Source of the DNA: Vicinamibacterales bacterium | GTDB taxonomy: Bacteria; Acidobacteriota; Vicinamibacteria; Vicinamibacterales; UBA2999 | Direction: 5' to 3' | DNA: 64,000 bases | NCBI GenBank assembly: GCA_044347565.1 | Contig: JBIKUN010000001.1 | Location: 22,302-86,301 of the forward strand | Shown here: positions 41,690 to 63,393 of the stretch, one piece after another | Layout of the letters: each line of letters starts with the position of its first letter | Position numbering within the stretch: position 1 is the first letter of the stretch | The notes under the pieces: generated by a model | What the model was told of the DNA's origin: nothing | Databases searched by the model: none | The model's input: only the letters and a program-made list of their open reading frames with translations | Program-made: the position numbers and the translations under genes

Positions 41690-41999
41690 TCGACGTCGTC
41701 CTGATGCACGCGTGACCTGACGGTCGACGACCACGCCGTCCTCGCTCACGCACCTGAGTCGTTTGCCTCCCCCCCGACACGAAGACACAGGAAGTCGATC
41801 CGGCCCCTGTGTTTGCGCTCCAGACTGCAGCCGCTTCAGCCGCGCGGCCCCGGCGTCGTGGCCCTCACGGCGTCGCCACAGCACGCACGACCAGCCGGCG
41901 CCGCGGCGCGTACGAGTGGACTCGCCTCGACAGTTTGGGCGGGGCGCCTGACACGGTCTTGACCGACCTGGCTGGTCGGATATACCTTCGCTCTTGCAA

Positions 42000-42016
42000 A
42001 TGAGACTCAGTCTCAT
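42000..42016. promoter_or_regulatory. 17-bp palindrome ATGAGACTcAGTCTCAT, 16 nt upstream of the TonB receptor start
   Basis: Read directly. It sits in a locally AT-rich patch, preceded by TTGCAA (41994-41999) and followed by GGAG and ATG(42032). Confidence 0.55.
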
Positions 42017-42031
42017 CTGTGGAGCAATCAA

Positions 42032-47282: not shown

Positions 47283-47322
47283 CAAAGCCTCCCGATGGAG
47301 GCCGCGACCGTCGGGGAGCCGA

Positions 47323-49962
47323 TTGAGGAGCGGGACGGACGTCATGCGCGCGCGAGGCCAGTCCATGATACGCATGATCGATCTCGTGCCGCCCAGCCCA
47401 GCGCTCACACCGCTCCGCATGCCGAGGTGGCCCTTCCCCATCCTGCTGACCCTGATCGTCGTCGGGTCGTGGGCCCTCGATACCCGCCAGCCGATGCCGT
47501 GGCCCGAGGCGGCAACGCCGTGGTTCACCCAGGTGCGTGCGCTCGCGCCGGCGACGTGGGGCATGGACCGCGTGAACGCGCAGGCGGCGCTCACGCCCGA
47601 TGTGCCGCTCGGCTCGCTGCTCGTGCTGCTGGCGGTGGCGGCGTGCACGCTCGCCACGCTGCTGGCCATCGGGGTCCGCGCGCCCCTGGCGCTCGCGGTG
47701 GCGCTTGGCCTCGCGGCCACGCGCTCACTCTGGAGCACCGTGTCGCCAGGGCAGGACGCGCTGCCGGTTGCCGTGGTGGCGTGTGCCGTCGTGGCCGTCG
47801 CGTGGCCGGCGGCGCGCCGAGTCGTAACCGCGACCGCCGCGCTGGGCGTCCTCGTCGCGTCGCCGACGGCCGCCTGGCTGGCGGCGCCGGCCGTGGCCGC
47901 GCTGCCGATGTCGTGGCGCCGTCGCGGCGTGTCGATCGTCGTGTTGCTCGCCCTCGGGCTCGGGCTGCAGGTGGCCCTGCTGCGACAGGTGTGGGCCGGC
48001 ATCACGTGCCTGGTCCCGGGCGAGTGGCCAATGGCGCTCGGCGACGTGCTGCGGCCGGGCAGCTCCGCGGATGCATCGCCGTGGCTGGCCGTGCAGCAGT
48101 CGCTGAGCGTGCTCGCCGGTGATGTGCATGCGTTCGGCCTGCTCGTGGCGGCGCTCGGCCTGGCGCGAGCGTCCGAGCGCACCCGTCCCCTGCGATTCGC
48201 CACCGCCGCCGCCATCACGCTGGCCGGCCTCGCGGTGTCCACCGGCGCCCTGCCCCCGAGCCACACGGCGGCGCTGCTGTTGCCCTGGTGGGCCGCCTGG
48301 TTCGGATGGGGACTGGCCACGCTCGTCGACGACACGTCCGGCCGGGCGCGGCCGTCGGCCTTCGCCTTTGGTGTCGTGCTCGCCCTCGCCACGCCGATGC
48401 TGCGTCACGCCACCCTCGTACCCGACCCATGGACGGCCGGCATGCCGTCGGTCGCGCAGGCGGTCGCCCCGGCCTGGCGGGACGGCGTCATCGCGAGCGC
48501 CGACGAGGCCCTGACGCGCCGGCTGCGCCTGGCGGGCGTGGCGATCGTCCCCGCCGGCGCCAGCACACTCGACCGGTGTCTGGCCTCGGGCCGGCCGGTG
48601 CACGCGCTCGGTGCCACGGTCCGCGCGGTCGAGCACCTGGGCTACCGTGTTGTCGAGCAGCCATTGCGCGCGCCGCTGGCAGCGGTCCTCAACGATCTGC
48701 GCCCCGACCAGCTGGTGGCCCTCGCCCTCTCGCCGTCGGCGCTCCAGTGGCTGGGCGCACCCGCCGTGGCGCGCCTCGCAGCGGTCCCTCCGTACGCGCT
48801 CTCCAGCCCGGCGCTGGGCGTCGTCGCGCGAACCGACCGCGGCGGCGCGGTCCGCACCGGACGCGAGGGCATCGATATGTCCCTGCCGGAAGGCGAGCTC
48901 GTCGGCGGACGCCGGTTGTTCGCGCCAGTGTCGGTGAGCGCACGGTCGGGCGAGACGTTCGTGGACAGCACGCCCGAGCGACTGGCCGCCGGCCAGCAGG
49001 CGTCGCTGGCCGTCATCGATCGCGCGCACTCGGTCGTGCTGCGGGCCGTGGGCGAGCCGGTACCCGGGCTGCCGATTTCGCTGCGGCGGCAGGCCGACTG
49101 GCGGCATGTCGGCGTCGCGGGCGCGGCGGCCTGCGTTCCCTCCTCGCGGCGCTGGACGCCGGTGCCCGGCGGCGACCGCCGGTTGAGCGTGCCGGTGGCT
49201 GGCGCCTCGGCGGCGCGGCCGGTCGTGCTCTACCTGGCCGCGGCCGACAGACCGACGGTCGGCGTCGCCGGCCTCGCGCCGGCGGCGCGGTGGCCCTCCT
49301 GGCGGGTCGAGCTCTTCGACACGCAACACGCGTCCGACCGCGGCCGTCTCGAGGCGCTCGAGACGCAGGACGACGTCCCCGGCGCAGGTCGTCCGCGAGC
49401 CCGCTGGGTGGCACGAGTGGTGGTGGCACCGCGTGGCCCCTGGGAACACGACCGCGTGGCCGTGAGCGCCGGTACCGCGCCCGAGGCGTGGATGGTGCGC
49501 GGCGCCGCCACGTCGACGGTCTGCGCGATGGCGGCGGCCGGTGAGCCACTCCTGCAGGGGCAGTACGGTCCGGTCGACGACGACACCGCGCGCGAACTCA
49601 CCGTGACGGCGCTCGACGGCTGGCATGCCGCCGATGTGCTGTACGGGCAGGTGTGGCAGTGGACGTCGCGTCCCGCGGCCACCGCCGTGTTTGAGGTCGA
49701 CGCTTCGATGCCGCTCATTCTGGCGATGGATGCCACCGGCGCCCGCACCGCGAGCGGCGACCAGGCCATCACCGTGCGCCTGAACGACCACGTGCTGCGC
49801 ACCGACTGGCACGGGCCCGGCCGCATCGCGTTGCCCGCAGAGGCCGTACGCGCGGGCGAGAACACGCTGTCGCTGGAGGTCGGCCAGGTCGTCGAGCCGG
49901 ACGGCGACCCGCGTGCCCTCGGGATCCAGATCCGCCAATTGCGGGTCATACCGCCGAACTGA
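47323..49962 (+). CDS. large membrane protein (N-terminal polytopic region plus ~500-aa C-terminal domain), function unknown
   Basis: 879-aa ORF with coding-like composition. It is divergent from 45810..47282 with only ~40 bp between starts (start uncertain). Confidence 0.6.
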   Translation: MRSGTDVMRARGQSMIRMIDLVPPSPALTPLRMPRWPFPILLTLIVVGSWALDTRQPMPWPEAATPWFTQVRALAPATWGMDRVNAQAALTPDVPLGSLLVLLAVAACTLATLLAIGVRAPLALAVALGLAATRSLWSTVSPGQDALPVAVVACAVVAVAWPAARRVVTATAALGVLVASPTAAWLAAPAVAALPMSWRRRGVSIVVLLALGLGLQVALLRQVWAGITCLVPGEWPMALGDVLRPGSSADASPWLAVQQSLSVLAGDVHAFGLLVAALGLARASERTRPLRFATAAAITLAGLAVSTGALPPSHTAALLLPWWAAWFGWGLATLVDDTSGRARPSAFAFGVVLALATPMLRHATLVPDPWTAGMPSVAQAVAPAWRDGVIASADEALTRRLRLAGVAIVPAGASTLDRCLASGRPVHALGATVRAVEHLGYRVVEQPLRAPLAAVLNDLRPDQLVALALSPSALQWLGAPAVARLAAVPPYALSSPALGVVARTDRGGAVRTGREGIDMSLPEGELVGGRRLFAPVSVSARSGETFVDSTPERLAAGQQASLAVIDRAHSVVLRAVGEPVPGLPISLRRQADWRHVGVAGAAACVPSSRRWTPVPGGDRRLSVPVAGASAARPVVLYLAAADRPTVGVAGLAPAARWPSWRVELFDTQHASDRGRLEALETQDDVPGAGRPRARWVARVVVAPRGPWEHDRVAVSAGTAPEAWMVRGAATSTVCAMAAAGEPLLQGQYGPVDDDTARELTVTALDGWHAADVLYGQVWQWTSRPAATAVFEVDASMPLILAMDATGARTASGDQAITVRLNDHVLRTDWHGPGRIALPAEAVRAGENTLSLEVGQVVEPDGDPRALGIQIRQLRVIPPN

Positions 49963-50082: not shown

Positions 50083-51225
50083 GTGGACTTCGAGTGGACC
50101 GCTGACCATCATCGCCTCCATCGCGGCGCCGTGGAGTTTGGCGCCGCGCGGCTCGTCGACGGGGTGGCCAGCCGCGACCGCGAGTGCGACTTCTCGCGCG
50201 AGGCGTGGCAGGCCTGCGCCGAGTTCGGGCTGCAGGGCCTGCTCGTCCCGGCGGCGTGGAACGGTGCCGGTCAGGATCTGCTGTCGGCGGTCACGGTCTT
50301 CGAAGGCATCGGCTACGGCGCGCGCGACAACGGGCTGGTGTTCTCGGTCGCCGCCCATGCCGCCTCGTGCGAGGGGCCGTTGAGCGCCTTCGGCAGCGAG
50401 GCCCAGAAGCGCGAGTGGCTGCCCGGCCTGGCCGACGGCCGCCTGATTGGCGCGACCGCCATCACAGAGCCGGACTCCGGGTCGAGCGCGCTCTCGCTGG
50501 CGACGACCGCGGTGCCGCACGGCGACGGCTGGGTGCTGCACGGCTCCAAGAGCTTCGTCACCAACGCGCCGGTCGCCGATCTCTTCATCGTCTACGCGCG
50601 CACCGGACCGGGCTTTGGCGGAGCCACCGCGTTCCTCGTGCCGCGCCACACCGAGGGGCTGGTCATCGGCCCGCCGATCGAGAAGATGGGGCTGCGCACC
50701 AGCCCGATGTCGATGGTCTACCTCGACGACTGTCGCCTGCCGGCCTCGGCCGTGGTGGGCGGCGTCGGCTCGGGCGCGATGATCTTCAGCCAGGTGATGG
50801 AGGCCGAGCGGCTCCTGGTGATGGCGCCGGCGATCGGCGTGATGCAGCGCATCCTCGAACGCTGCGTCGCGCACGCCCGGCAGCGCCGGGCCGGATCGGT
50901 GCCGATCGGCAGGCACCAGGCGATTGCGCACCGCATCGCCGACATGGAACTGCAGCTGGAGGCGGCCCGGCTGCTGCTGTACCGGGCGGCCTGGCAGCGC
51001 ACGCGCCACGGCACGGCGACGCGCGACTCGGCGCTCGCCAAGCTCGCCGTCAGTGAGGCCTACGTGGACACCTGCCGCAGCGCCGTGCAGATCTTCGGCG
51101 GCTACGGGTACACCGTCGAGTACGAACTCGAGCGGGAACTGCGCGACGCGCTCGCCGCCACGCTGTATGTGGGCACATCCGAGATCCAGCGCAATCTCAT
51201 CGCCGGGCTCAGGGGGTTGGGATGA
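50083..51225 (+). CDS. acyl-CoA dehydrogenase-family flavoprotein
   Basis: 380 aa with GLQGLLVP, GATAITEPDSGSS, GSKSFVTNAPVADLFIVYART, and a C-terminal IFGGYGYTVEYELERELRDA. Confidence 0.88.
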   Translation: MDFEWTADHHRLHRGAVEFGAARLVDGVASRDRECDFSREAWQACAEFGLQGLLVPAAWNGAGQDLLSAVTVFEGIGYGARDNGLVFSVAAHAASCEGPLSAFGSEAQKREWLPGLADGRLIGATAITEPDSGSSALSLATTAVPHGDGWVLHGSKSFVTNAPVADLFIVYARTGPGFGGATAFLVPRHTEGLVIGPPIEKMGLRTSPMSMVYLDDCRLPASAVVGGVGSGAMIFSQVMEAERLLVMAPAIGVMQRILERCVAHARQRRAGSVPIGRHQAIAHRIADMELQLEAARLLLYRAAWQRTRHGTATRDSALAKLAVSEAYVDTCRSAVQIFGGYGYTVEYELERELRDALAATLYVGTSEIQRNLIAGLRGLG

Positions 51226-52406
51226 GGGTGGGTCTGCTCTCCGTGCTCCTTCTTCTCGTGTCGGCAGGCGAGACGCGCGCCCACAACGTGGGCGACAGCT
51301 ACCTGTACCTGCAGGTCTACGAGGACCGCGTCACGGGACGCTTCGAAGTGTCGCTGGCCGACTTCAATGCCGCGTTGCGGCTGACGGGGACGGACCGGGA
51401 GATCACGCCGTCGAACTTCGACCAGACGATCGGTTTCCTGCGCGACTACTACCGCTCGCACGTCACCATCGCCGACGCGCGGGGGCCGCTCGGCATCCGC
51501 TTCACGACGCACGACCTGCTCGACGTGCGCGGCGGCTACGCCCAGCTGTCGTTCGACCTGGACGGGCTCGACGGCGTGCCCGACCGGCTCATGTTCGACT
51601 ATGCGGTGCTGCTCGACGAGGAACCCGGCCACCGCGGCTTCCTGCTCATCGAGCACAACTGGGCGACGGGCACCATCGCCAACGAAGGCCAGATCTCCCT
51701 GGTCTTCAGCCCCGATAACCGTCATCAGGAGTTCGACATCACCACCGGCAGCCGCTGGCGCGGCTTCGTCGCCGTCGTCCGGCTCGGTGTCGATCACATC
51801 TGGATGGGCGTGGATCACGTGATGTTCCTGGTCGCCCTCCTGCTGCCGGCGGTGCTCGTGCGCCGTGACGGCGGATGGCGGGCCATCGAGGACTTCAGAC
51901 CGGCGCTCGTCAACGTCGTGAAGATCGTGACGGCCTTCACCGTGGCGCACAGCGTGACGCTCTCGCTCGCTTCGCTCGGCATCCTGCACCTGCCAGTCCG
52001 GATGGTCGAGGTGATCATCGCGGGCTCCATCGCGGTGGCCGCCGCCGACATTCTTTATCCGCTGTTCCACGGACGCATCTGGCTCATCGTCTTCGGATTC
52101 GGCCTGTTCCACGGCTTCGGTTTCGCGGCGGCCATGGAGGAGATTGGCGTGCTGCGCGAGCACATCGGCCTGACGCTGTTCGGGTTCAACCTCGGGGTCG
52201 AGCTGGGCCAGCTGGCCATCGTCGTCGTGACGTTCCCACTGCTGTTCCTGGTGCGCCGGCTGGCGATGTACCGGCAGCTCGCGCTGCCACTCACGGCGGC
52301 CGCGATGATCCTGATTTCGCTGGTGTGGGTGGTCGAGCGGTCGTTCGACGTCAAGTTGCCGAGGCCCGGGATGGTCATCTCGGCGGTGCGCACCTGGCTC
52401 GCGTGA
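51222..52406 (+). CDS. HupE/UreJ-like (HupE_UreJ_2 type) membrane protein with an N-terminal exported domain
   Basis: Signal peptide ending ...GETRA|HNVGDSY, a ~170-aa soluble part, then GVDHIWMGVDHVMFLVALLLP, FTVAHSVTLSL and GLFHGFGFA in 6 TM segments. The ATGA start overlaps the ACAD stop. Confidence 0.7.
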   Translation: MRVGLLSVLLLLVSAGETRAHNVGDSYLYLQVYEDRVTGRFEVSLADFNAALRLTGTDREITPSNFDQTIGFLRDYYRSHVTIADARGPLGIRFTTHDLLDVRGGYAQLSFDLDGLDGVPDRLMFDYAVLLDEEPGHRGFLLIEHNWATGTIANEGQISLVFSPDNRHQEFDITTGSRWRGFVAVVRLGVDHIWMGVDHVMFLVALLLPAVLVRRDGGWRAIEDFRPALVNVVKIVTAFTVAHSVTLSLASLGILHLPVRMVEVIIAGSIAVAAADILYPLFHGRIWLIVFGFGLFHGFGFAAAMEEIGVLREHIGLTLFGFNLGVELGQLAIVVVTFPLLFLVRRLAMYRQLALPLTAAAMILISLVWVVERSFDVKLPRPGMVISAVRTWLA

Positions 52407-52437: not shown

Positions 52438-54027
52438 ATGCCCGCACTGCTGAACCGGCTGATCGACGCGGCGGCGCTCAGCCGCCCCGAGGCGCCGGCG
52501 GTGCGGTGCGACGACGAGACGCTCACCTACGAGCAGCTCGCGCGGCGGGCCAATGGCCTCGCGCGGGTGCTGCTCCAGACCGGCCTGTCGCGCGGCAACC
52601 GCGTGGCGGTGTGGCTCGGCAAGGGGCTGCACGTGCCGGTGAGCTTCTACGGCGTGTTCGCGGCGGGCGGCACGCTCGTGCCGATCGATCCGAAGGCTCC
52701 CGTGGAGCAGGCCGTCCGCATCCTGCGCGCCACCGGGGCGACCCATCTGGTGTCGGAGCCCGAACGCCGGGCCGCCGTCGGCCGGGCGCTCGCCGCGTGT
52801 CCCGACGTGACCCACGTGATCGGGGTCGCCGCCGACGACGCGATAGAGGTGCCGTGCGTCGCGTGGGCGACGGTGCTCGAGCAGGCCAGCGACCGGCCGC
52901 CGGACGTCGCGGTCATCGAACTCGACCCTGCCTACATCCACCACACCTCGGGCTCGACCGGCGTGCCCAAGCTGATTCTGCACACCCACTACTCCGCGAC
53001 CAGCTTCGTGAACTGGGCGGCGTCGACCTATGCGCTGCGGAGCGACGACCGCCTCACCAACCACTCGTCGCATCACACCTGCTTTGCCACCTTCGACTAC
53101 TACGCCGCGGCCCGTGCCGGCGCGACCACGGTCATCCTCACCCCGGCGGTGCTGATGATGCCTGGGAGCCTCGCGGCCCTCCTCGAGCGCGAGCAGGTCT
53201 CGGTGTGGTACTCCGTGCCGGCCGCGCTGGTGCAGCTGTCGCTGCGCGGCGATCTCGAGGCGCGGGACCTGCGGGCCCTCCGCTGGGTGCTCTTCGCGGG
53301 CGAGACCTTCCCCGGCAAGCACCTGCGCCGGATCCGTCAGCAGCTGCCCGGCGCCCGCTTCAGTCACGTCTACGGATCGACCGAGGTCAACGTCTGCACC
53401 TACTACCATCTCCCGGAGACCGGTGATCCCGGCGGCCCGCTGCCCATCGGTCGGGCCTGCGCCACCGCGCGCACCCTGGTGGCCGACGCGGCGCTGCAGC
53501 CGGTGCCGGACGGCGAGGTGGGCGAGCTGTTCGTGCGCGGGTCGACGGTGATGGCCGGCTACTGGGACGATCCCGATCGCAACCGCCAGGTGCTCGTCCG
53601 CCGCCCTGCTGGCGGCGGGCTCGACGAGGTCTACTTCAAGACGGGCGACCGGGCGCGAGTGCTCGCCGACGGCAACCTCGCGTTCGTCGCCCGCGCCGAT
53701 CGCCAGGTCAAGGTGCGCGGCCACCGCGTCGAGCTCGAGGAGGTCGAAGCCGCGCTCCTCTCGCTGCCGTCGGTCGAGGAGGCCGCGGTGTTCACCGTGC
53801 CGGACGGCGAGGGCAGCGCGGCGCTGCGGGCCGCGGTGGTGGTGGGCGGCGAGGCACCGCCGCCGGAACGGGAGATGCTGGCCGACCTGCGCAGAGTGCT
53901 CCCCCTGTACGCCTTGCCCTCGGCGATTGCCGTCGTCGGGGCCATGCCGCGTACGCCGACCGGCAAGATCGACTTGCGAGTGCTTGGCGGACACGCGGAG
54001 GAAAGGACGCCGAGCGATGGCGAATGA
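52438..54027 (+). CDS. free-standing adenylation (AMP-binding) enzyme
   Basis: 529 aa with TYEQLARRANGLA, IHHTSGSTGVPKLI (A3), YGSTE (A5), FKTGDRA (A7), VKVRGHRVELEEVE (A8), PRTPTGKID (A10). GAAGGAGG lies upstream. Confidence 0.88.
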   Translation: MPALLNRLIDAAALSRPEAPAVRCDDETLTYEQLARRANGLARVLLQTGLSRGNRVAVWLGKGLHVPVSFYGVFAAGGTLVPIDPKAPVEQAVRILRATGATHLVSEPERRAAVGRALAACPDVTHVIGVAADDAIEVPCVAWATVLEQASDRPPDVAVIELDPAYIHHTSGSTGVPKLILHTHYSATSFVNWAASTYALRSDDRLTNHSSHHTCFATFDYYAAARAGATTVILTPAVLMMPGSLAALLEREQVSVWYSVPAALVQLSLRGDLEARDLRALRWVLFAGETFPGKHLRRIRQQLPGARFSHVYGSTEVNVCTYYHLPETGDPGGPLPIGRACATARTLVADAALQPVPDGEVGELFVRGSTVMAGYWDDPDRNRQVLVRRPAGGGLDEVYFKTGDRARVLADGNLAFVARADRQVKVRGHRVELEEVEAALLSLPSVEEAAVFTVPDGEGSAALRAAVVVGGEAPPPEREMLADLRRVLPLYALPSAIAVVGAMPRTPTGKIDLRVLGGHAEERTPSDGE

Positions 54028-54316
54028 TACGCGACCGGGGCTCGAGGCCTCCGACATCGAACAGCGGCTGCTGGCCTTCCTGCAGCGCGAACTGCTGGAG
54101 CCGGGCGTGGCGATTGGCCGCGACGCCGACCTGCTGTCGGGCGACGTGATCGACTCGATCGGCGTCCTCCGCCTGGCCGCCTTCGTCGGCGAGGAATTCC
54201 GGATCGGCGTGCAGCCCGCCGATTTCGTCGTCGGGAACTTCCGGAGCGTCGCGGTGCTCGCCGGCTATGTCGGTCGCGCCCTGACCGCGCAGGCGGCAGG
54301 AGACGTCGGGCCATGA
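54017..54316 (+). CDS. free-standing carrier protein (ACP/PCP-like)
   Basis: 99 aa: MANDTRPGLEASDIEQRLLAFLQRELL ... LLSGDVIDSIGVLRLAAFVGEEF (DSxG phosphopantetheine site). GGAGGAAAGGA lies upstream. It overlaps the A gene end and the NRPS start. Confidence 0.75.
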   Translation: MANDTRPGLEASDIEQRLLAFLQRELLEPGVAIGRDADLLSGDVIDSIGVLRLAAFVGEEFRIGVQPADFVVGNFRSVAVLAGYVGRALTAQAAGDVGP

Positions 54317-57300
54317 GCGATGCCGGACCGGCGGTTCGGTCGCGCGACGCCGCGGCCGAGCCCACGGCGTTGACGCACAGCCAGCAGCAGATCTGGGTCG
54401 GCCAGCGGCTCACCCCGGCGAGCCCGCTCTACAATATGGCGTTCGCCTTCGTCTTCCCCGCGGAGCTGAACGCCGACCTGTTCTGCGCGGCCTGGCAGCG
54501 AGTCATCGACGCCAGCGACGCGCTCCGGACGCGGATCGTGGACGACGAGCGCGGCCATCCGCAGGGCACCGTGACGGCGCGCGGGCGGGCCACCGAGGTG
54601 ATCGACCTCGCCCCGTCACCCGACCCCGGCGACGCGTTCCGCCAGTGGTGCCGTGAGCGCTGCGCGCGCCCGCTGCCACCTGGCGGCGACCTGGTCGACA
54701 GCGTGCTGGTGCGGCTCGGTGACGGGCGAACCGGGTGGTATCTCAACCAGCACCATGTCATCACCGATGCCCGGGCGACCCAACTGCTGTACCGCCAGGT
54801 CGGTGCCGAGTACGAGACCCTGCGCGGCGCCGGCGGCGTCGAACCGCCAGCCCTCCCCCACTACTATCCGACCATCGCGGCCCTGCCAGCCGGCGTGGCC
54901 ACGCGCGCGGCCGCCGTGGACCACTGGCAGGCTCGCCGGGAGCGCCCCGGCCGGTCGGTGCCCTTCTACGGCCGCCCCGCGGTGCCCGTGGGCACGGCGA
55001 GCACCCGCCTGACGATCGACCTCGACGAACCCCGATCCCGCGGTCTCGATCGCCTCGGCCGCGCGGTGGGACTCGCACACGTGCCGGAGGGCGTGTCGCG
55101 GTTCGCGCTGTTCGCGACACTGCTCGTCACCTGGCTCCACCGGATCAGCGGGGCCCGCGAACTCGGCTTCGACGCCCCGGTCAACGGAAGACCGACACCG
55201 CAGTCCCGGCGCGCGCTCGGCGTGTTCATCGAGATGTTTCCGTTCGCGGTGGCCGTCGACAACACCGACACGTTCCGGACGCTGGCGGCCCGGTGCCTGC
55301 AGGAATCGCTCCTCCTGCTGCGTCACGGACTCCCGGGCCTCAGCGCGCCGTCGGGCGCCACCACCAGCACCGTCGTCCTCAACGTCGTGCCCGCCTCCTT
55401 CGGCCCCTTCGCGGGGATGCCGGCCGATGTCGACTGGGTGCACCCGGGGCACGGCGACAGCGTGCATGCCCTGCGGCTCCAGGTCCACGACTTCGCAGGG
55501 GCCGGGCGCTACGTGCTGCACTTCGACGTCAACGACGGCGCGCTCGAGGCGCGGCTGTGGCAGCGCAGTCTGCGCCACTTCGAGTCGCTGCTCGACGCCG
55601 TGCTCGACGACCCCGACCGCCCGATCGCCGCCATCGACATCCTGGTGGACGAGGAACGGCAGGCGCTCGCCGCGCTCAACACGACGAACGCGCGGCCGCT
55701 GCCGCAGCAGCCGGTGACCGCGATGTTCGAGGCGCGGGCGGCCAGCGATCCGGGCGTAATCGCCGTCCGCCAGGGGACGACGTCGCTGACCTTCGCAGCG
55801 CTGCGGGCTCAGGCCGACGCCCTGGCGGCCACGCTGCTGGCGCGCGGCATCGCCCCGGGCGATCGCGTCGCCATTGCCGGCCGCCGGTCTCTGCACTCGG
55901 TCGTCGCCATTCTCGGCACGCTGCGCGCGCGCGCGGCGTACGTGCCGATCGACGCCTCGACGCCAGCGGCGCGTCTCGACTACGTGCTGCAGGACTCCGG
56001 CGCCCGCCTGCTCCTCGCCGGCGAGGGCATGTCAGTGCCCCCGCGGCCGGGATGCACCGTGCTCGACATCGCCGAGGCGATTGACGCCGGCGCCGGGATG
56101 ACGCCGGACCGGCCCGGGCCAGGCCTGGACGACCTCGCCTACCTGATGTACACGTCCGGGTCGACGGGCCGGCCCAAGGGCGTCCTCATCGAGCACGGCG
56201 GCCTGGCAGATTATCTGTGCTGGGCGGAGCGCCGCTACGTGCGCGGCGACCGTCTCACCTATCCGCTGTTCACCTCGCTGGCCTTCGACCTCACCGTCAC
56301 CAGTCTGTTCCTGCCGCTCATCACCGGCGGGACGATGGAGGTCTACCCGGAGCCGGACGGCCCGGTCGATGCGGCGCTGATGGACGTGGCCGCCGCCAAC
56401 ACGGTCGACTTCATCAAGCTCACGCCCTCGCATCTGTCGCTGCTGCGACGCCTCGGCCTCGACGGCTCGCGGCTGCGCCGCATGGTGGTCGGCGGCGAAG
56501 ATCTCAAGACCGCGCTCGCCGCGGCCATCAGCGCGCAACTGCACGGCGCGGTCGAGATCGACAACGAGTACGGGCCGACCGAGGCCGTCGTCGGGTGCGT
56601 GGCACACCGCTACGCCCCGACGGCGGATACGGGGTCCAGCGTGCCCATCGGCGTCCCGGCCGATCACGTCCAGGTGGAGATTCTGAACCAGGCGCTGTCG
56701 CCGGTCCCCGAGGGCGTGGCGGGAGAGCTGTGGGTGTCGCGCTTCGGGCTCGCGCGCGGGTATCACGGGGCCCCGGACCTGACCGACGCGCGCTTCACGG
56801 CGCACCCGCGGCGACCCGGCGAGCGCTGGTATCGCACAGGAGATCTCGTGCGGCTGGCGGCCCCAGGCACGCTCGACTATCTCGGCCGGATCGACCGCCA
56901 GCTCAAAGTGTCCGGCTTCCGCGTCGAACCCGGTGAGGTGGAGGCCGCGCTGCTCGCGGTGCCGCAGATCACGCAGTGCGCCGTTATCGCGCGCCGCCGG
57001 CCGGCGGCCGACCCTGCGGCGGACGACGCCGTCCGCCACTGCGCCCGCTGCGGCCTGCCCTCCAACTTCCCCCGCGTGACCTTCGACGCCGAGGGCGTGT
57101 GCGACGTCTGCCGCGCCTACGACGCCATCGAGCCGCATGCCCGGGCCTACTTCCGCACGATGGACGACCTGCGGGCGCTGTTCGCATCGTCGGCACGCGC
57201 GTGTCCCTCCGGCTACGACTGCCTGATGCTCTACAGCGGCGGCAAGGACAGCACCTATGCGCTGTGCCGGCTGGTGGAGATGGGATTGTCGGTCTACGCC

Positions 57301-58629
57301 TTCACGCTCGACAACGGCTTCATCTCGGACCGCGCGAAGGAGAACATCCGCAGGGTGACGACGCAGCTCGGCGTGCCGATCGAGTTCGCGACCACGCCGG
57401 CGATGAACGCCATCTTCCGCGACAGCCTGGCGCGTTTCTCGAACGTCTGCAACGGCTGCTTCAAGACGATCTACACGCTCGGCATGCTGCGGGCGCGCGA
57501 CCTCGGGGTCCCGATCGTCGTCACCGGGCTCTCACGCGGCCAGATGTTCGAGACGCGGCTGTCGGAGGAGATGTTCCGCGACGGCCGGATCCGCCCCGAC
57601 GAGGTCGACGCGGCGGTGCTGGCCGCGCGCAAGGCCTACCACCGTGCGCCCGACGAGGTGTCGCGCACGCTGGACGTGCGGGCCTTCGACGACGATCGCA
57701 TCTTCGAGCAGGTGCAGTTCGTCGACTTCTATCGCTATTGCGACGTTGGCATGGACGCGATGCTCGATTATCTCGGGCGGACGGTGCCCTGGATCCGCCC
57801 GGCCGACACCGGCCGCTCGACCAACTGCCTCATCAACGACCTCGGCATCTACGTGCACCGCAAGGAGCGCGGGTACCACAACTACGCGCTGCCGTACAGC
57901 TGGGACGTGCGGCTCGGCCACAAGACGCGCGCGGCCGCCCTCGAGGAGCTCGATGACAACATCGACCCCGCCGCTGTGCGCCGGTTGCTCGCCGGCATCG
58001 GCTACGACGAGCAGCGGATCGCGGCGAGCGGCGAGCAGACGTCGCTCGTGGGCTTCTACGTCGCATCCGGCGACATCGCCGAGCCCGACCTGCGGCAGGC
58101 GCTGGCCGAGCGCCTGCCCGCGCCGCTCGTGCCGGCGCGGCTGCGGCGTGTGGACACGATTCCGCTCACCGCCAACGGCAAGGTCGACGAGCAGGCGCTG
58201 GCCGGCCTGCTGGCCGAGCGGACGGCCGAGGCGGCGTACCGTGCTCCCGAGGGCCCGGTCGAGGAGTTCCTGGCGGGCGTCTGGCGTGAGGAGCTGGCGG
58301 TGGCGCGCGTTGGAACGGGCGACAGCTTCTTCGACCTGGGCGGCACCTCGCTCACCGCCATGCAGGTGATGGTGCGCCTGTGCCGCGAGTTCGACATCAC
58401 CCTGCCGCTCGCGACGATTTTCACCCACCAGACGCTCGGCGCGCTGGCGCGGGCCGCGGAGGACCGGATCCTCGCGGATGTCGCGGATGACGCGGACGGG
58501 CCCGGCACGGAGCCGGCCGGCCCGCGGGTGCGCGTCACTCCGACTGAGTCGTCGGGCGCCGGCTCCGCAGGCGCCCCCGCAGCAGGTGCAGCAGGACCGC
58601 GAAGCGCCCCGACAGGCCCAGCTCGCTGA
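54313..58629 (+). CDS. NRPS module C - A(interrupted by a zinc-ribbon/PP-loop domain) - T
   Basis: C domain HHVITDARAT (aa 147-156). A motifs: LAYLMYTSGSTGRPKG, NEYGPTE, YRTGDL, GRIDRQLKVSGFRVEPGEVE (A8, aa 858-877). An insert spans aa ~897-1240 with HCARCG..GVCDVCRAY and LMLYSGGKDSTYAL. Then LPAPLVPA (A9) and LTANGKVD (A10). T domain FFDLGGTSLTAMQV. Confidence 0.9.
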   Translation: MSDAGPAVRSRDAAAEPTALTHSQQQIWVGQRLTPASPLYNMAFAFVFPAELNADLFCAAWQRVIDASDALRTRIVDDERGHPQGTVTARGRATEVIDLAPSPDPGDAFRQWCRERCARPLPPGGDLVDSVLVRLGDGRTGWYLNQHHVITDARATQLLYRQVGAEYETLRGAGGVEPPALPHYYPTIAALPAGVATRAAAVDHWQARRERPGRSVPFYGRPAVPVGTASTRLTIDLDEPRSRGLDRLGRAVGLAHVPEGVSRFALFATLLVTWLHRISGARELGFDAPVNGRPTPQSRRALGVFIEMFPFAVAVDNTDTFRTLAARCLQESLLLLRHGLPGLSAPSGATTSTVVLNVVPASFGPFAGMPADVDWVHPGHGDSVHALRLQVHDFAGAGRYVLHFDVNDGALEARLWQRSLRHFESLLDAVLDDPDRPIAAIDILVDEERQALAALNTTNARPLPQQPVTAMFEARAASDPGVIAVRQGTTSLTFAALRAQADALAATLLARGIAPGDRVAIAGRRSLHSVVAILGTLRARAAYVPIDASTPAARLDYVLQDSGARLLLAGEGMSVPPRPGCTVLDIAEAIDAGAGMTPDRPGPGLDDLAYLMYTSGSTGRPKGVLIEHGGLADYLCWAERRYVRGDRLTYPLFTSLAFDLTVTSLFLPLITGGTMEVYPEPDGPVDAALMDVAAANTVDFIKLTPSHLSLLRRLGLDGSRLRRMVVGGEDLKTALAAAISAQLHGAVEIDNEYGPTEAVVGCVAHRYAPTADTGSSVPIGVPADHVQVEILNQALSPVPEGVAGELWVSRFGLARGYHGAPDLTDARFTAHPRRPGERWYRTGDLVRLAAPGTLDYLGRIDRQLKVSGFRVEPGEVEAALLAVPQITQCAVIARRRPAADPAADDAVRHCARCGLPSNFPRVTFDAEGVCDVCRAYDAIEPHARAYFRTMDDLRALFASSARACPSGYDCLMLYSGGKDSTYALCRLVEMGLSVYAFTLDNGFISDRAKENIRRVTTQLGVPIEFATTPAMNAIFRDSLARFSNVCNGCFKTIYTLGMLRARDLGVPIVVTGLSRGQMFETRLSEEMFRDGRIRPDEVDAAVLAARKAYHRAPDEVSRTLDVRAFDDDRIFEQVQFVDFYRYCDVGMDAMLDYLGRTVPWIRPADTGRSTNCLINDLGIYVHRKERGYHNYALPYSWDVRLGHKTRAAALEELDDNIDPAAVRRLLAGIGYDEQRIAASGEQTSLVGFYVASGDIAEPDLRQALAERLPAPLVPARLRRVDTIPLTANGKVDEQALAGLLAERTAEAAYRAPEGPVEEFLAGVWREELAVARVGTGDSFFDLGGTSLTAMQVMVRLCREFDITLPLATIFTHQTLGALARAAEDRILADVADDADGPGTEPAGPRVRVTPTESSGAGSAGAPAAGAAGPRSAPTGPAR
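57001..58032 (+). other. inserted domain inside the A domain: CxxC-x16-CxxC zinc ribbon plus PP-loop ATP pyrophosphatase (N-acetyl-sugar-amidotransferase-like)
   Basis: C910/C913/C930/C933. SGGKDS at aa 975-980 (nt 57235-57252). Also NVCNGCFK and GLSRGQMFE. Boundaries were estimated from where A8-A9 linker-like sequence stops and resumes. Confidence 0.7.
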
Positions 58630-59323
58630 AGGACCCGATCTGCGCATTGGTCCCGGCGTACATCGAGAGGCGCCGCACACGGTCGCGGGCACGCAGGAAC
58701 TCCCGGTGGATTACCCGCATGTCGGGCGCATACGCCAGCCGGAGATCGGGCCGCATCGCGGCCAGCCGGTGCACGAGTTCCGTGTCGGCGGCGCGCTCCC
58801 ATAACCGGAACGGCCCCACGTCCTCGAACACCGACGCCCGCACCGCCATGTTGTTGCCGTAGGCGAACTGGTAGGCCGGCGGGCACTGCGTGACCACGTA
58901 CTCGGCCTTGGCGTTCTCGTAGGCGGCGAGCATGGCCAGGGCCACCGACGCCTCGACCGGATACCGGCAGTGGCCGATCTGGATCGCGACGGCGGGATCG
59001 CGCATGCCGTCACACACCGCCCGCAGCCAGTTGCGGTCGGTGACGCAGTCGGCGTCGGTGAACGCGATGATCGGCGCCTGCGCCCGCCGGATGCCGGCGT
59101 TGCGCGCCGCGTAGACCCCCGGCGTGTCCTCGCGCAGCAGCGTCACCTGCGGATACCGCCGGACCACCGCCGCGGACTCGTCGGTCGACCGGTTGTCCAC
59201 CATGAGGATCTCGACGGCCCCACCCACCTCGTCCTGCGCCAGCAGCGCCTCGATGCACGCCGGAAGGTAGCGCTGACGATTGAAGAACGGCACGATCACC
59301 GACACACGGGGCAATGGGGTCAT
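58535..59323 (-). CDS. family-2 glycosyltransferase
   Basis: VSVIVPFFNRQRYLPACIEALLAQ, MVDNRSTDES, AFTDADC. The ATGA start overlaps the NRPS2 stop. The 3' end overlaps the convergent NRPS1 by 95 nt. Confidence 0.85.
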   Translation of the reverse strand: MTPLPRVSVIVPFFNRQRYLPACIEALLAQDEVGGAVEILMVDNRSTDESAAVVRRYPQVTLLREDTPGVYAARNAGIRRAQAPIIAFTDADCVTDRNWLRAVCDGMRDPAVAIQIGHCRYPVEASVALAMLAAYENAKAEYVVTQCPPAYQFAYGNNMAVRASVFEDVGPFRLWERAADTELVHRLAAMRPDLRLAYAPDMRVIHREFLRARDRVRRLSMYAGTNAQIGSFSELGLSGRFAVLLHLLRGRLRSRRPTTQSE

Positions 59324-62300
59324 GGCATGGACCAGGAGGTCGAGGCGTCAGCCTCGAGGTGCTGGAGGACAACGGCCCGCGCCGCGTCCACGTGTGCCGC
59401 GTCATGCGGATCGGGCGTGGCGTGGACGGTGAGCGGGCCGAGAAAGTAGGGCCGCCACGTCGCCGCGGCGTCGCTCGACGTGCCGGTGGGATTGAAGAAG
59501 ACGGTGGGCGTGCGCACCGGCCCGGGCTGGTAGTGCGCATGCAGCCGGAACCGCTCCACGCGCACGTCGGCCTGGAGGAGGCGCGGCGTGAGCGGCAGCC
59601 CGGCCCGCTGCCGCAGGCCGCCGGCGAGGCTCAGCACCCGCCGCCACGGGCGCTCGGTGAGCCATTGCCTGGCCCGCCGGTACGGCGCTCTGGTGAACGG
59701 GTGATTGCCGCGCAGGTAGAGGCGCAGGATCTGTCCGGCCGAGAGTTCGGCCAGCGGCCGGCGGAGACCATCAATGCGCACGCGGAACGGGCCGACGCGG
59801 TAGAAGTCCAGGGGCATCGGCGCGATCGCGTAGAGCCGCTCCACCGGGAGACCGCGCGCTTCCATCACCCGCACGGTCTCGATCGCCAGCCACGCGCCGA
59901 AGGAATAGCCGGCCAGGACGCAAGGGGTCTCCGGAAAGCGCCGCGCGATCTCGCCGGCCAGCTCCTCCGCCAGGTCGGTCATCGTCGGCCAGCGTCCACG
60001 ATTGCCTTCGGGGCGCAGGCTGACCCCTCGCAGGCCGTACACGGGCCGTTCGCCGCGGAACCGCGCCGCCAGTACCGGTGCGAAGACGTCGGGGACGGCG
60101 ATGACGAGCGGCGCCTTGCGCCCCGTGGGCTGGATGGGAAACAGGTGCTGGTACTCCTGCGTCTGCGCGCCGCGGCGTTCGCCAATCCGCTCGGCGAGAT
60201 CGCGGACGGTGGGATGCTGGAACACGTCGGCTGCCGACAGCGTGACCTCGAAGTCCTGCTCGATGGCGGTGACCATCTGCAGCACCTGCAGCGAGTGCCC
60301 CCCCAGCTCGAAGAAATTGTCGGACACTGTGAGGCCGGTGCGCCCCAGCAGGCCCTCCCAGAGGGACAGCAGGGCGTGCTCGCGCGTGCTGAGCACCGCG
60401 TCGGTGGCGGGCAGCCGGCGTTCGGCGGCGAGCGGCGTGTCCCGCAGACTTCGGCGGTCGACCTTGCCATTGGGCAGCGTCGGCAGCGCGGACACCTCCA
60501 CCAGCCGGCTCGGCACCATGTGCTCCGGCAGCCGCGCGGCCAGGCCCGGTCGCCAGTCCCGCACGCCACCTGGACGCTTCGCCACGACGAACGCCACGAG
60601 TTGCAGCGGCCCTCCGTCGCCGGCGCCGGATGACCCTCCACCGGCACCACGAGCCACGACGGCCGCCTGCTCGATGGCGGGATGTTCGAGCAGGGCCGCC
60701 TCGATCTCGCCGGGCTCGATGCGGAACCCGCGCAGCTTGATCTGCTCGTCGTCGCGTCCGAGGAACAGCAGCCGCCCGTCGGCGGTCCAGGCCATGCGGT
60801 CGCCCGTGCGATAGCGGCGCCCGGTCGCGTCCTGCCCCGGCGCGGCGGCGGCGAACCGTTCGCCGGTGAGGTCGGGGCGCCGCCAGTAGCCGTCGGCGAC
60901 GGTCGGCCCGACGATGAACCCATGCCCGGGAATTCCGGCCGGCACGCGACGGCCGAGCGGATCGAGCACTTCCACCCGCACGCCGGGGATGGGGCGCCCG
61001 ATGGCCACCGGGCGCGCCGCGTCGGCGGCCGTCACTTCATGCACCGTGGCCCAGACCGTGGCCTCGGTGGGGCCGTACTCGTTGAAGAGCCGCACATGGG
61101 GCAGGCGCGCGATGTGGTCGTCGGCGAGCCGCGACGCACAGCTCTCCCCGGCGACGATCACCGTCTCGAGCCCCTGCAGCCGATCGCCGCCCGCCTGGAG
61201 CAGCTGGGCGTAGAGCGAGGGCACGCACAGCAGGCTGGTCACGTGGTGATCGGCCACGAGCTGCGCCAGCCGCCGCACGTCGCGCGCCTCCTCGTCCGTC
61301 GGCAGGACGAGTGTGCCCGCGGTGGCGAGCGTCCAGAAGATGCCGGCCACCGAGCTGTCGAAGGCCAGACTCGGCAGGAGCAGGAAGCGCCCCGGCGGTG
61401 AGCCGTAGTACTGCACACGCGCCTGAGTCGAGCGCCTCAGGTGTTCGTGCGTGATGACGACACCCTTCGGACGGCCGGTCGAACCCGACGTGTAGAGAAT
61501 GTAGGCCACCGACTCCGGTGAGACGTCGGGCGACGCCGCGGCGGGAGCGGCGTCGGGCTGGAGCGTATCGACCGCAATGGATCGCCCGCCGCCTGCCGGC
61601 GGGCGGCTGGCGCGCGCCGAGGTCGTGACCACGGCCGCCACCTCCGCGTCGGCGAGCAGATCGCGGTTGCGCGCCTCCGGGTAGGAGGGGTCCAGCGGCA
61701 CGTAGGCGGCGCCGGCGAGGTGGCTGCCGGCCACGCCGGCGATCATCTGCGTGGAGCGCGGCAGGAACAGCGCCACGCGACCGCCGGGCCTCACACCTGC
61801 GGCTCGCAGCGCGGTGGCGATCGTCCGCCCCGCGGTCTCGAGTTCGTCGTAGCGGAGACTGACGCCGCCACAGGTGACGGCCGGCCCCTGCGGCAGGCGG
61901 CGGGCCTGCGCCAGCATCCGCGGCGGCAGCAGGTCCATTGCCGGTTCGTCGAGCCGGGGCCCGCGCTCCCACGCCGACACCCGCTGCATTTCCGCGACGT
62001 CGAGCATCGGCACCTCGCGCACTGGCCGGTCGCGATCGGCGGGCAGGTGTTCGAGCAGCACCTCGTAGTGGTCGAGGAGCGCCTCCATCCAGACGGCATC
62101 GAAGCGGTCGGCGCGGAACTCGACGGCAAGCTGCAACCCGCCGTCGCCTTCGCTCACGAGGAGCGTCAGATCGAACTTCGCGGCACCCAGATCGAGCGTG
62201 ATCGGCTCGAGCGCGACGTCTCCGAGCCACGGGGCGGGGTCCGACTCCTGGTAGACGAACATCACCTGGAAGATCGGGTGGCGATCCGCCTGACGTGCGG

Positions 62301-63393
62301 GCGACAACGCCGCCGCCAGCACGTCGAAGGGCACCGACGCGTGAGCGAGCAGGGCCTTCAGTTCCGCACAGAAGTGCTCGACGCACGTTCCGACCTGCTG
62401 CTGCTCGTCGAGCGGCGTGGCGACGACCAGCGGGTTGAGGAAGTAGCCGATCATGTCCGCCGTGGCCGGATGCGAGCGCGTCGTCACCGGCGTGGCGAAG
62501 GCCACCCGCTGGCCGCCGGTGTAGCGGTGCAGCAGCAGCCGGAACACGAACGCGTAGATCATGAACGGCGTCGCGCCGGTGGCGGTGGCGAAGCGCCTGA
62601 TGCCCGCCTGGGTCGACGCACGCGGTCGCCGCTCGATGAGCCGCCCCCGGTGCCCTCCGGGGCTGGCGGGCTGCTCGAAGGGCAGCCGCAGGTCGTCTGG
62701 CAGGGGGTCGAGGCGCCCTCGCCAGAACGCGAGGTCCTCGTCACGACGGCTCGCGCCGGTCTGCCCGAGCCAGTGGACGTAGTCGTCATACTGGGCGCCC
62801 GGGGCCGGGTCCGTGAGCCGCCCCGCGTAGGCCGCCGCGACCTCCTTCCACAGGACGGCGAGCGATCGCTCGTCGGCCAGGATGTGGTGCAGCGTGAGCA
62901 ACAGGACGCGCGTCTGCCCAGACGGCTCCTCGATGAGCTGGACGCGGACCAGCGGCCCGTGCGCGAGGTCGAAGGGCCGGCGGGCCTCTCGGGTGGCCAC
63001 CGCCAGCGCGCCCCCCTCCTCGGCCTCGACCCGCTCGATGACGAGCGGCGTCGCCGCGTGGACGATCTGACGCGCGGTGTCGCCGTCGGCCTCGAACGTC
63101 GAGTGCAGCAGCCGGTGCCGCGACACCACCCGCGCGAACGCCTGCTGCAGCCGCGGGACGTCCAGCACGCCGCGGACGCGGAAGGCGCTGCACAGGTTGT
63201 AGGCGGACGAGTCCGGGTCCAGCTGGTGCACGACCCACAGGCCGCGCTGCATCTCGCCCAGTGCGGCGGGCTGGCCGGCGGGTCGGGCCACCAGGTCGAG
63301 CCCGCGCGCGCGAGCACCGGCCTTCTTCGACTGGATGGCCCGCTGCAACCGCTCGGCCCGGTCACTCGCCTTCCCGGGCCCGCTCATTGGCAA
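59320..63393 (-). CDS. NRPS module C - A - T - TE
   Basis: C domain LHHILADERS. A motifs: VAYILYTSGSTGRPKG, NEYGPTE, YRTGDRM, LRGFRIEPGEIE, LPEHMVPS, LPNGKVD. T domain FFELGGHSLQVLQM. Thioesterase GYSFGAWLA. Confidence 0.92.
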   Translation of the reverse strand: MPMSGPGKASDRAERLQRAIQSKKAGARARGLDLVARPAGQPAALGEMQRGLWVVHQLDPDSSAYNLCSAFRVRGVLDVPRLQQAFARVVSRHRLLHSTFEADGDTARQIVHAATPLVIERVEAEEGGALAVATREARRPFDLAHGPLVRVQLIEEPSGQTRVLLLTLHHILADERSLAVLWKEVAAAYAGRLTDPAPGAQYDDYVHWLGQTGASRRDEDLAFWRGRLDPLPDDLRLPFEQPASPGGHRGRLIERRPRASTQAGIRRFATATGATPFMIYAFVFRLLLHRYTGGQRVAFATPVTTRSHPATADMIGYFLNPLVVATPLDEQQQVGTCVEHFCAELKALLAHASVPFDVLAAALSPARQADRHPIFQVMFVYQESDPAPWLGDVALEPITLDLGAAKFDLTLLVSEGDGGLQLAVEFRADRFDAVWMEALLDHYEVLLEHLPADRDRPVREVPMLDVAEMQRVSAWERGPRLDEPAMDLLPPRMLAQARRLPQGPAVTCGGVSLRYDELETAGRTIATALRAAGVRPGGRVALFLPRSTQMIAGVAGSHLAGAAYVPLDPSYPEARNRDLLADAEVAAVVTTSARASRPPAGGGRSIAVDTLQPDAAPAAASPDVSPESVAYILYTSGSTGRPKGVVITHEHLRRSTQARVQYYGSPPGRFLLLPSLAFDSSVAGIFWTLATAGTLVLPTDEEARDVRRLAQLVADHHVTSLLCVPSLYAQLLQAGGDRLQGLETVIVAGESCASRLADDHIARLPHVRLFNEYGPTEATVWATVHEVTAADAARPVAIGRPIPGVRVEVLDPLGRRVPAGIPGHGFIVGPTVADGYWRRPDLTGERFAAAAPGQDATGRRYRTGDRMAWTADGRLLFLGRDDEQIKLRGFRIEPGEIEAALLEHPAIEQAAVVARGAGGGSSGAGDGGPLQLVAFVVAKRPGGVRDWRPGLAARLPEHMVPSRLVEVSALPTLPNGKVDRRSLRDTPLAAERRLPATDAVLSTREHALLSLWEGLLGRTGLTVSDNFFELGGHSLQVLQMVTAIEQDFEVTLSAADVFQHPTVRDLAERIGERRGAQTQEYQHLFPIQPTGRKAPLVIAVPDVFAPVLAARFRGERPVYGLRGVSLRPEGNRGRWPTMTDLAEELAGEIARRFPETPCVLAGYSFGAWLAIETVRVMEARGLPVERLYAIAPMPLDFYRVGPFRVRIDGLRRPLAELSAGQILRLYLRGNHPFTRAPYRRARQWLTERPWRRVLSLAGGLRQRAGLPLTPRLLQADVRVERFRLHAHYQPGPVRTPTVFFNPTGTSSDAAATWRPYFLGPLTVHATPDPHDAAHVDAARAVVLQHLEADASTSWSMP

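Follow-up and report, generated by a model that had tools for sequence, protein, structure and literature searches.

A predicted AMDH domain embedded in the adenylation domain of a non-ribosomal peptide synthetase from Acidobacteriota

Introduction

Among non-ribosomal peptide synthetases (NRPSs), AlbIV, from the pathway to the antibiotic albicidin, and CysH, from that to the antibiotic cystobactamid, have been described as carrying a PP-loop domain within an adenylation (A) domain for asparagine. Here we compare with these systems an NRPS that is encoded in a 64,000-nucleotide stretch of DNA from a Vicinamibacterales bacterium of the Acidobacteriota (contig JBIKUN010000001.1, positions 22,302 to 86,301; the whole stretch is called the window below), and whose A domain is interrupted, at window positions 57001-58032, by a segment that contains a cysteine ribbon and the PP-loop motif SGGKDS.

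As far as the original work is summarised in later papers, AlbIV of Xanthomonas albilineans contains a 342-amino-acid (aa) insert with an SGGKD motif that belongs to the alpha-ANH-like superfamily, and the A domain that holds it activates Asn and is the source of beta-cyano-L-alanine (Cociancich 2015, per PMC8949500 and PMC12283262). The mechanism proposed there, in the form in which it is relayed, has ATP activating the side-chain amide oxygen of Asn, after which water is eliminated to give cyano-alanine (Cociancich 2015, per PMC8949500). AlbIV, also termed albicidin NRPS-2*, makes up for an in-line A domain that is inactive in a polyketide synthase-NRPS.

The homologous 38-kDa insert of CysH from Cystobacter velatus (Baumann 2014), which is 69% identical to that of AlbIV, was named the AMDH (aminomutase / amide dehydratase) domain by Gross et al. 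2021 (PMC7966384). CysH resembles the window enzyme in that an insert of ~340 aa in an Asn-specific A domain is followed by the remainder of the A subdomain and a thiolation (T) domain. When loaded with L-Asn, CysH showed a loss of 18 Da that was absent from CysH lacking the AMDH domain; conversion of T-domain-bound L-Asn to beta-cyano-L-alanine was shown in vitro, isomerisation of Asn to isoasparagine (isoAsn) was shown genetically, and deletion of the AMDH domain abolished all cystobactamids with an isoAsn or cyano-Ala linker (PMC7966384). It was also proposed that, in the cystobactamid pathway, CysJ hydroxylates the beta position of the bound Asn more quickly than dehydration proceeds and prevents it; the enzyme mechanism of the AMDH domain was at that time called unknown (PMC7966384). 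The same authors already noted many orphan homologues, all of them within Asn-specific A domains and ascribed to 'BGCs of unknown natural products', that is, biosynthetic gene clusters (PMC7966384).

The architecture is thus already described, and the window enzyme belongs to an orphan branch of a known domain family. A first-pass annotation of the window had presented the insert as new, knowing of no described NRPS with an embedded PP-loop domain; that novelty falls away, because AlbIV and CysH have been described, the AMDH domain has been reconstituted in vitro and in vivo (PMC7966384), and the function of the architecture was already characterised. The reading that we favour, to which we give a probability of roughly 0.8, is that the insert is an AMDH domain of the CysH/AlbIV type that modifies tethered Asn within a pathway to an acyl-(Asn-derived)-His lipodipeptide.

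Architecture of the interrupted NRPS

The open reading frame (ORF) at 54313-58629 (+) is free of stops and encodes 1438 aa, which translation and matches to Pfam and NCBIfam resolve into a module of the order C-A(AMDH)-T, where C is a condensation domain. All of its parts lie on the + strand. The condensation domain (aa 19-452, 54367-55668; Pfam) is presumed to have a lipo-initiation role, given the acyl ligase and acyl carrier protein (ACP) genes that precede the NRPS gene, and it is followed by the N-terminal core of the A domain (aa 472-896, 55726-57000), within which the Pfam AMP-binding match covers aa 472-818 and motif A8, GRIDRQLKVSGFRVEPGEVE, occupies aa 858-877. The insert extends over aa 897-1240 (57001-58032). 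Behind it stand the remainder of the A-domain C-terminal subdomain (58033-58191), with motifs A9 (LPAPLVPA, aa 1268-1275) and A10 (NGKVD, aa 1288-1292), and a thiolation, or peptidyl carrier protein (PCP), domain (aa 1319-1381, 58267-58455; Pfam PP-binding). The AMP-binding_C profile matches at aa 1243-1290 with positions 27-76 of its 76 only, so the C-terminal subdomain is split around the insert as had been anticipated.

The size of the insert was measured by alignment with the A domain of the NRPS encoded next to it (59320-63393, minus strand), which has no interruption. Between aa 838-905 and 1259-1296 of the interrupted enzyme lie 353 residues, compared with 19 at the same place in the neighbouring A domain, which leaves about 335 extra residues. 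The earlier count of ~345 extra residues between A8 and A9/A10 is close to this figure, and the same holds exactly for the positions assigned to A8, CxxC-x16-CxxC, SGGKDS, A9 and A10.

In the insert the G+C content at third codon positions (GC3) is 0.95, which matches the 0.90-0.93 of its flanks, and no compositional seam is seen. Among the 80 related loci that were fetched, the insert is preceded by C and A domains and followed by a T domain in all homologues with sufficient flanking sequence. The insert is also the best-conserved segment of the protein, with a mean identity to the window sequence of 64%, as against 53% for the A core, 49% for the T domain and 44% for the C domain.

The last ~48 codons of the gene (58483-58629) form a low-complexity tail rich in Ala, Gly and Pro, with a GC3 of 0.71 against ~0.93 upstream, and overlap a glycosyltransferase gene at its 3' end, the two genes being convergent. 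From the end of the insert onwards the protein has ~198 aa, more than the 150-195 aa of most short-form homologues.

Identity of the insert

Direct comparison with the AMDH domain of CysH, using the sequence from the supplement and source data of PMC7966384, gave 51% identity and 66% positives by BLASTP (E 3e-129), with 338 of the 344 aa aligned. All long motifs are common to the two domains. These include the cysteine ribbon, SGGKDSTYALC, FTLDNG, SNVCNGCFKTIYT and GLS(K/R)GQxFETRLS, together with CNGC, FVDFYRYC, DTGRSTNC and LPYSWDVRxGH. By this homology the insert is a member of the AMDH family as first seen in AlbIV and CysH; its link to the AlbIV insert is indirect and runs through CysH (PMC7966384).

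Profile and structure comparisons place this family near the N-acetyl sugar amidotransferases (NASATs). The insert matched NCBIfam TIGR03573, the NASAT family, with an E value of 7.6e-27 over profile positions 2-318 of 344, which is the PP-loop family match that a profile search had been expected to return, at a score (94.6 bits) far under the curated family cut-off of 203.2. Its sole Pfam match was a borderline one to QueC (PF06508; 20.6-22.9 bits for a cut-off of 22 bits) that was limited to the PP-loop region (profile positions 2-73 of 210), so Pfam alone would miss this family. An AlphaFold model of the insert, made with 53 homologues, reached a pLDDT of 92.8 and a pTM of 0.91, and Foldseek ranked the Legionella NASAT 8wex (LpNASAT) first in the Protein Data Bank (PDB), with an E value of 4.6e-11 and a TMq of 0.61. 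The suggestion in the first-pass annotation that the insert resembles NASATs of the WbuX/WbpG type therefore holds at the level of the fold. The structural neighbours after 8wex were YcfA, LarE, TtuA and asparagine synthetase B. According to their PDB titles, the second and third of these are sulfur transferases, and YcfA makes 6-thioguanine.

Two sets of invariant cysteines lie one before and one after the PP-loop. The tetracysteine ribbon CxxC-x16-CxxC (aa 910-933, 57040-57111; C910, C913, C930 and C933) precedes SGGKDS (aa 975-980, 57235-57252), which is invariant among homologues and contains the ATP-binding SGGKD of core region 1 as defined by Gross et al., and the four ribbon cysteines are invariant in alignments of 24 and of 53 homologues. 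This order matches the motif of the NASAT family, a zinc-binding CXXCXn[GN]XCXXC combined with the PP-loop SGGXDS (PMC10607449). Three further cysteines are invariant among homologues and present in CysH too, namely C1046 and C1049 of the CNGC motif (57448-57459) and C1172 of DTGRSTNC (57826-57828), the last of which is a candidate third metal ligand.

The insert can also be set against other PP-loop enzymes and other interrupted A domains. NASATs (WbpG, WbuX and LpNASAT 8wex) have the same fold and the same order of tetracysteine and PP-loop; they differ from the insert in that they stand alone, act on nucleotide sugars, make amidines and are 20-25% identical to it. QueC and ToyM (PF06508) convert a carboxamide to a nitrile with ATP, and they are PP-loop enzymes like the insert; their substrates are 7-deazapurines and the arrangement of their metal site is different. 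TtuA/TtcA, LarE from T. maritima and M. maripaludis, and CtaC have SGGxDS and, ~70 residues further on, an aligned CxxC, as the insert does, and the structural similarity of the sulfur transferases to the insert (TMq 0.32-0.40) lies below that of the NASAT (0.61). A 2026 survey of PF06508 reported 'massive multi-domain proteins (900-2603 aa)' beside its NASAT subcluster, which it did not name as NRPSs (PMC13329287). Methyltransferase-interrupted A domains (PMC8341866) use the same loop between A8 and A9, and their inserted fold and chemistry are unrelated.

Specificity codes and the second module

The code of the interrupted A domain, DLTKVGEVGK, is read as Asn. All long homologous ORFs (61 of 61) share the pattern DLTK[VIL]GEVGK with the window enzyme, and AlbIV (DLTKIGEVGK) and CysH have the same code residues, as read from the supplement of PMC7966384. 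The literature was searched with the literal code strings, which led to PMC12283262, from there to albicidin, and then to the AMDH domain. DLTKIGEVGK was placed in an Asp/Asn section and described as 'also compatible with' beta-cyano-Ala (PMC12283262).

A second NRPS module, C-A-T-TE (TE, thioesterase), is encoded at 59320-63393 (-) with the code DSALIAEVWK, read as His (Pfam and code), and this string has been discussed alongside His-activating domains (PMC12283262). DS[AV]L[IV]AEVW is found in 43 related loci and is kept wherever the second module lies in range. From these predicted specificities, His appears to come after an Asn-derived residue in what the cluster family makes.

The neighbouring His module of several related loci apparently has a methyltransferase at the same A8-A9 point at which the AMDH domain sits in the first module. 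In a locus from Chloroflexota (L053, 11496-17201) and one from Planctomycetota (L041, 12899-18464) the His module thus appears to be interrupted too, in the order C-A core, ~260-aa methyltransferase-like segment and AMP-binding_C (profile positions 27-76)-T-C, with the ORF calls in three pieces.

Distribution and variant arrangements

An exhaustive HMMER search over 1.84 billion cluster representatives returned 3065 matches at E<=1e-3, of which 595 (50%-identity clusters) had E<=1e-30. Among the best 150 matches, almost all were proteins of 1350-3100 aa in which the match lay near residues 850-1300. When one genome per species was scanned, relatives were found in at least 415 species genomes. 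The closest, at 90% identity, are in Acidobacteriota, which points to this phylum as the probable source of the window, and others occur in Verrucomicrobiota, Cyanobacteria, Bacteroidota, Chloroflexota, Acidimicrobiia, Planctomycetota, Gemmatimonadota and Proteobacteria. The same layout is present in long ORFs from many phyla, which answers the question of architecture and taxonomic spread that the first-pass annotation had raised. The 25 closest homologues listed in PMC7966384 include those of Leptolyngbya sp. Heron Island J (L070), Verrucomicrobiae bacterium DG1235 (L036) and Ca. Thiomargarita nelsonii (L069), and all three genomes were independently recovered here.

A protein word-index search returned only fragments of relatives, of 300-610 aa. 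In two loci (L081 and L082), long-read assemblies of metagenome-assembled genomes (MAGs) break the NRPS gene into several calls, and other fragments lie on contigs of a few kb. Surveys of domain architecture that use such broken gene calls would undercount the AMDH-NRPS family.

Two arrangements depart from the common layout. On a plasmid of Streptomyces sp. NBC_01216 (L086, 13068-17118), an AMDH-like domain with 43% identity is not embedded in an A domain and instead is joined N-terminally to a C domain; before it comes an A-T that has no insert and bears the non-Asn code DARHASLMTK, and an asnB gene is nearby. A stand-alone homologue with 28% identity, annotated as QueC, is encoded on plasmids of B. 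thuringiensis and B. cereus. The homologue of Bacillus thuringiensis HD1002 (L085, 8001-8972; 323 aa) keeps the cysteine ribbon, SGGKDS, CxxC and STNC, and lies between an ACP and two adenylating enzymes, with two carrier proteins, ketosynthases and asnB nearby. Its annotation as a 7-cyano-7-deazaguanine synthase is probably an error, and an orphan thiotemplated pathway is the likely setting of this gene.

Gene cluster around the NRPS

Neighbour families were counted over 81 loci, and the order of genes that recurs across phyla is dehydrogenase, HupE_UreJ_2 protein, AMP-ligase, ~90-aa ACP and then C-A(AMDH)-T. In the window the first of these is an acyl-CoA/acyl-ACP dehydrogenase (50083-51225, +; Pfam Acyl-CoA_dh_N/M/1), which would be expected to modify the fatty acyl starter; its family is present in 46 of the 81 loci, and tblastn found relatives at most related loci. 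It is followed by a HupE_UreJ_2 membrane protein (51222-52406, +; Pfam PF13795, E 3.4e-41) with an apparent N-terminal signal peptide, an N-terminal region of ~170 aa before the membrane domain and helices rich in GxDH and His, and this protein is kept in the core of the cluster across phyla.

The third gene encodes a stand-alone AMP-binding enzyme (52438-54027, +; Pfam AMP-binding and AMP-binding_C) that is taken as a fatty-acyl-AMP/ACP ligase, the family of which occurs in 65 of the 81 loci. Between it and the NRPS gene lies a gene for a small ACP of 99 aa with a DSI serine motif (54017-54316, +; translation), the stop codon of which overlaps the NRPS start codon (ATGA). The window ACP had no Pfam match at E<0.001; the equivalent 99-aa gene of L081 gave a weak PP-binding match, a family of ~89 aa holds the position between ligase and NRPS in 46 of the 81 loci, and a Roseovarius record annotates a phosphopantetheine-binding protein within its cluster.

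Downstream, a family-2 glycosyltransferase gene (58535-59323, -; Pfam) is convergent with the NRPS gene and overlaps its 3' end. The glycosyltransferase is found in loci of the Acidobacteriota type (21 of the 81), and the Acidobacteriota version of the cluster adds glycosyltransferases, a flippase, a methyltransferase and a sulfotransferase. An ornithine-cyclodeaminase-like gene is present in 26 loci. Upstream, a TonB-dependent receptor (CarboxypepD_reg, Plug and beta-barrel; 41963-44431, +; Pfam) ends ~5.6 kb before the first core gene, the dehydrogenase at 50083. Its membership of the cluster is suggested by related loci: the same type of receptor adjoins the cluster in L081, L036 and L079, and the L079 receptor belongs to a family of ~740 aa with members in 10 of the 81 loci, so that at least 10 loci have a TonB receptor near the cluster.

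Among the recurrent neighbours that were annotated there was no hydroxylase, glutaminase or sulfur-donor family. No HisH/HisF pair was seen in the window cluster, in the annotated related loci or among the annotated recurrent neighbour families.

Proposed pathway and alternatives

The steps of the pathway that we favour can be set out as follows. The interrupted A domain would activate L-Asn, as its specificity code predicts, and load it on the adjacent T domain, where the embedded PP-loop domain, by homology to CysH, would act in cis on the tethered Asn to give a nitrile (beta-cyano-L-alanine) and/or isoasparagine. This chemistry would most likely open with ATP-dependent activation of the amide oxygen, as proposed for AlbIV. 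The gene content suggests that the acyl ligase and the small ACP hand over a fatty acyl starter, into which the acyl-CoA dehydrogenase may have introduced a double bond, that the C domain N-acylates the residue on the T domain, and that the second, convergently encoded module adds His before the TE frees the product as an acyl-(Asn-derived)-His lipodipeptide. Glycosylation of this product is probable in the present lineage, judging from the same neighbourhood.

Of the two outcomes, we lean towards nitrile formation over isomerisation, because no SyrP/TauD-type hydroxylase is conserved and hydroxylation by CysJ has been proposed to prevent dehydration. No SyrP/TauD- or CysJ-type hydroxylase was found among the annotated neighbour families, with CysB not searched by sequence.

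Several considerations weigh against this proposal. The characterised enzymes, CysH and AlbIV, are stand-alone A-AMDH-T proteins that act in trans to supply an assembly line for aromatic oligoamides, and CysH is only 51% identical; the window and related loci encode an in-line C-A(AMDH)-T ahead of a further module, in what would be a fatty-acyl dipeptide pathway, so the reaction assigned to the in-line enzyme rests on homology. Whether the outcome is a nitrile, isoAsn or a third product is not readable from the sequence. The Asn and His codes are predictions, and the ATP-dependent step of AMDH domains is a proposal. In addition, the triad formed by the CxxC and C1172 has no role in a plain scheme of adenylation followed by elimination.

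This triad leads to an extension of the AMDH reading. The CxxC of the insert aligns with the CxxC through which mmLarE (8cnz) binds its [4Fe-4S] cluster, and also with C122/C125 of E. coli TtcA; C1172 was not aligned with the third TtcA ligand in the profile comparison, in which the alignment is unreliable past the core (probability 64%). Purified CysH was dark brown, and its authors looked for a CxxCxxxC motif only (PMC7966384). If an Fe-S cluster were bound at the triad, it would explain this colour, and a metal cluster could underlie both AMDH activities, nitrile formation and aminomutation. A product function can be added to this picture, because the HupE-like core protein, the recurring TonB receptors and His as the second residue suggest, as speculation from gene content, a metallophore. 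These two proposals, that the AMDH domain is a metal-cluster-dependent PP-loop enzyme and that the product is a metal-binding acyl-(cyano-Ala or isoAsn)-His metallophore imported by a receptor, are tentative and rather unlikely. Neither was found stated in the literature, in a search that could have missed more recent work on how AMDH domains function or on what this cluster makes.

A different chemistry would follow if the insert worked as a NASAT does, adenylating the tethered amide carbonyl and replacing its oxygen with ammonia to give an amidine or an amidation product. The NASATs, which form acetamidino groups, are the closest stand-alone family by profile (TIGR03573) and by fold (8wex), and the tetracysteine motif and PP-loop are common to both. 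However, the 51%-identical domain of CysH yields a nitrile and isoAsn and no amidine, and the TIGR03573 score of 94.6 bits falls short of the 203.2-bit cut-off. Genes of the HisH and HisF type lie beside four of six plasmid NASATs, and the annotated AMDH-NRPS loci have no such pair. The cysteine triad, invariant in AMDH homologues, is missing from the solved NASAT 8wex and from five of the six plasmid NASATs; the remaining one, from a plasmid of Rhodobacteraceae SC52 (L083, 4001-5206), has the CxxC...C triad and stands beside hisH and hisF, so the NASAT family is heterogeneous at this site. Amidine formation by the insert is accordingly very improbable. For the tethered residue, the first-pass annotation had expected an amidation, an amidine or a thiolation; the homologous domain instead makes a nitrile by dehydration and isoAsn by aminomutation. 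The part of that suggestion in which ATP activates the carbonyl oxygen agrees with the AlbIV mechanism, in so far as later papers relay it; the replacement of that oxygen by nitrogen or sulfur is not borne out by the products of CysH.

The same triad could instead mark an Fe-S-dependent thioamide synthetase that exchanges the amide oxygen of a carrier-bound substrate for sulfur. SGGXDS with CXXC-C is the signature of [4Fe-4S] PP-loop sulfur insertases (PMC9283937), and the Fe-S alpha-hydrolase CtaC of closthioamide biosynthesis thioamidates PCP-bound peptides (PMC6772006). The insert has SGGKDS and an invariant CxxC...C, its CxxC aligns with ligands of mmLarE and TtcA, YcfA, LarE and TtuA are among its structural neighbours, and the dark brown colour of CysH could be read in the same way. 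Against sulfur chemistry stand the products of CysH and AlbIV, which carry no sulfur at the modified residue, and the recurrent annotated neighbours, which include no cysteine desulfurase, rhodanese or TtuB-like carrier. The failure of the third cysteine to align with the third TtcA ligand points the same way, and the presence of the triad in the L083 NASAT, beside HisH/HisF, means that the triad is not diagnostic of sulfur chemistry. We regard a thioamide product as a slim prospect; thioamide and amidine chemistry are both given low weight because the 51% identity to CysH is established.

That the insert is an artefact, whether a chimera, a missed stop or a separate gene, or else a decayed and inactive relic, could be argued from the many 300-610-aa fragments among its database homologues and can be practically dismissed, because these fragments trace to short contigs and to long-read MAGs with broken gene calls, the frame is continuous with uniform GC3 across the insert, the same architecture recurs in long ORFs of many phyla and in cluster representatives of 1350-3100 aa, and the insert is the most conserved region, with all catalytic motifs invariant.

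Set within the AMDH family, the window offers an Acidobacteriota example of the orphan branch that was flagged by the cystobactamid authors, and the comparative data sharply define that branch as a predicted Asn-then-His lipodipeptide pathway with a fixed gene set in many phyla. This definition makes the branch a good target for heterologous expression, and its cultured carriers include Roseovarius pelagicus HL-MP18 (on a plasmid), Neolewinella xylanilytica DSM 29526 and Verrucomicrobiae DG1235. Lipopeptides that contain a nitrile or isoAsn are rare. In addition, the NASAT fold and the cysteine triad give concrete residues that can be mutated to address the mechanism of AMDH domains.

Other features of the window

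Between ~7500 and 27300 the window has a G+C content of 0.65-0.69 and a GC3 of 0.75-0.83, below that of the flanks (GC3 0.87-0.92). This region starts beside a tRNA-Lys (8205-8280) and so may be an acquired island. A tRNA-Gly called by ARAGORN at 13879-13952 lies inside an ORF, lacks confirmation by Rfam and is probably spurious. Upstream of the cluster, two long and very G+C-rich ORFs, 47215-49962 (+) and 45810-48404 (-), overlap on opposite strands. Neither has a Pfam match, and counterparts of the ORF at 47215-49962, at 65% identity, precede the cluster in two related loci (L001 and L003).

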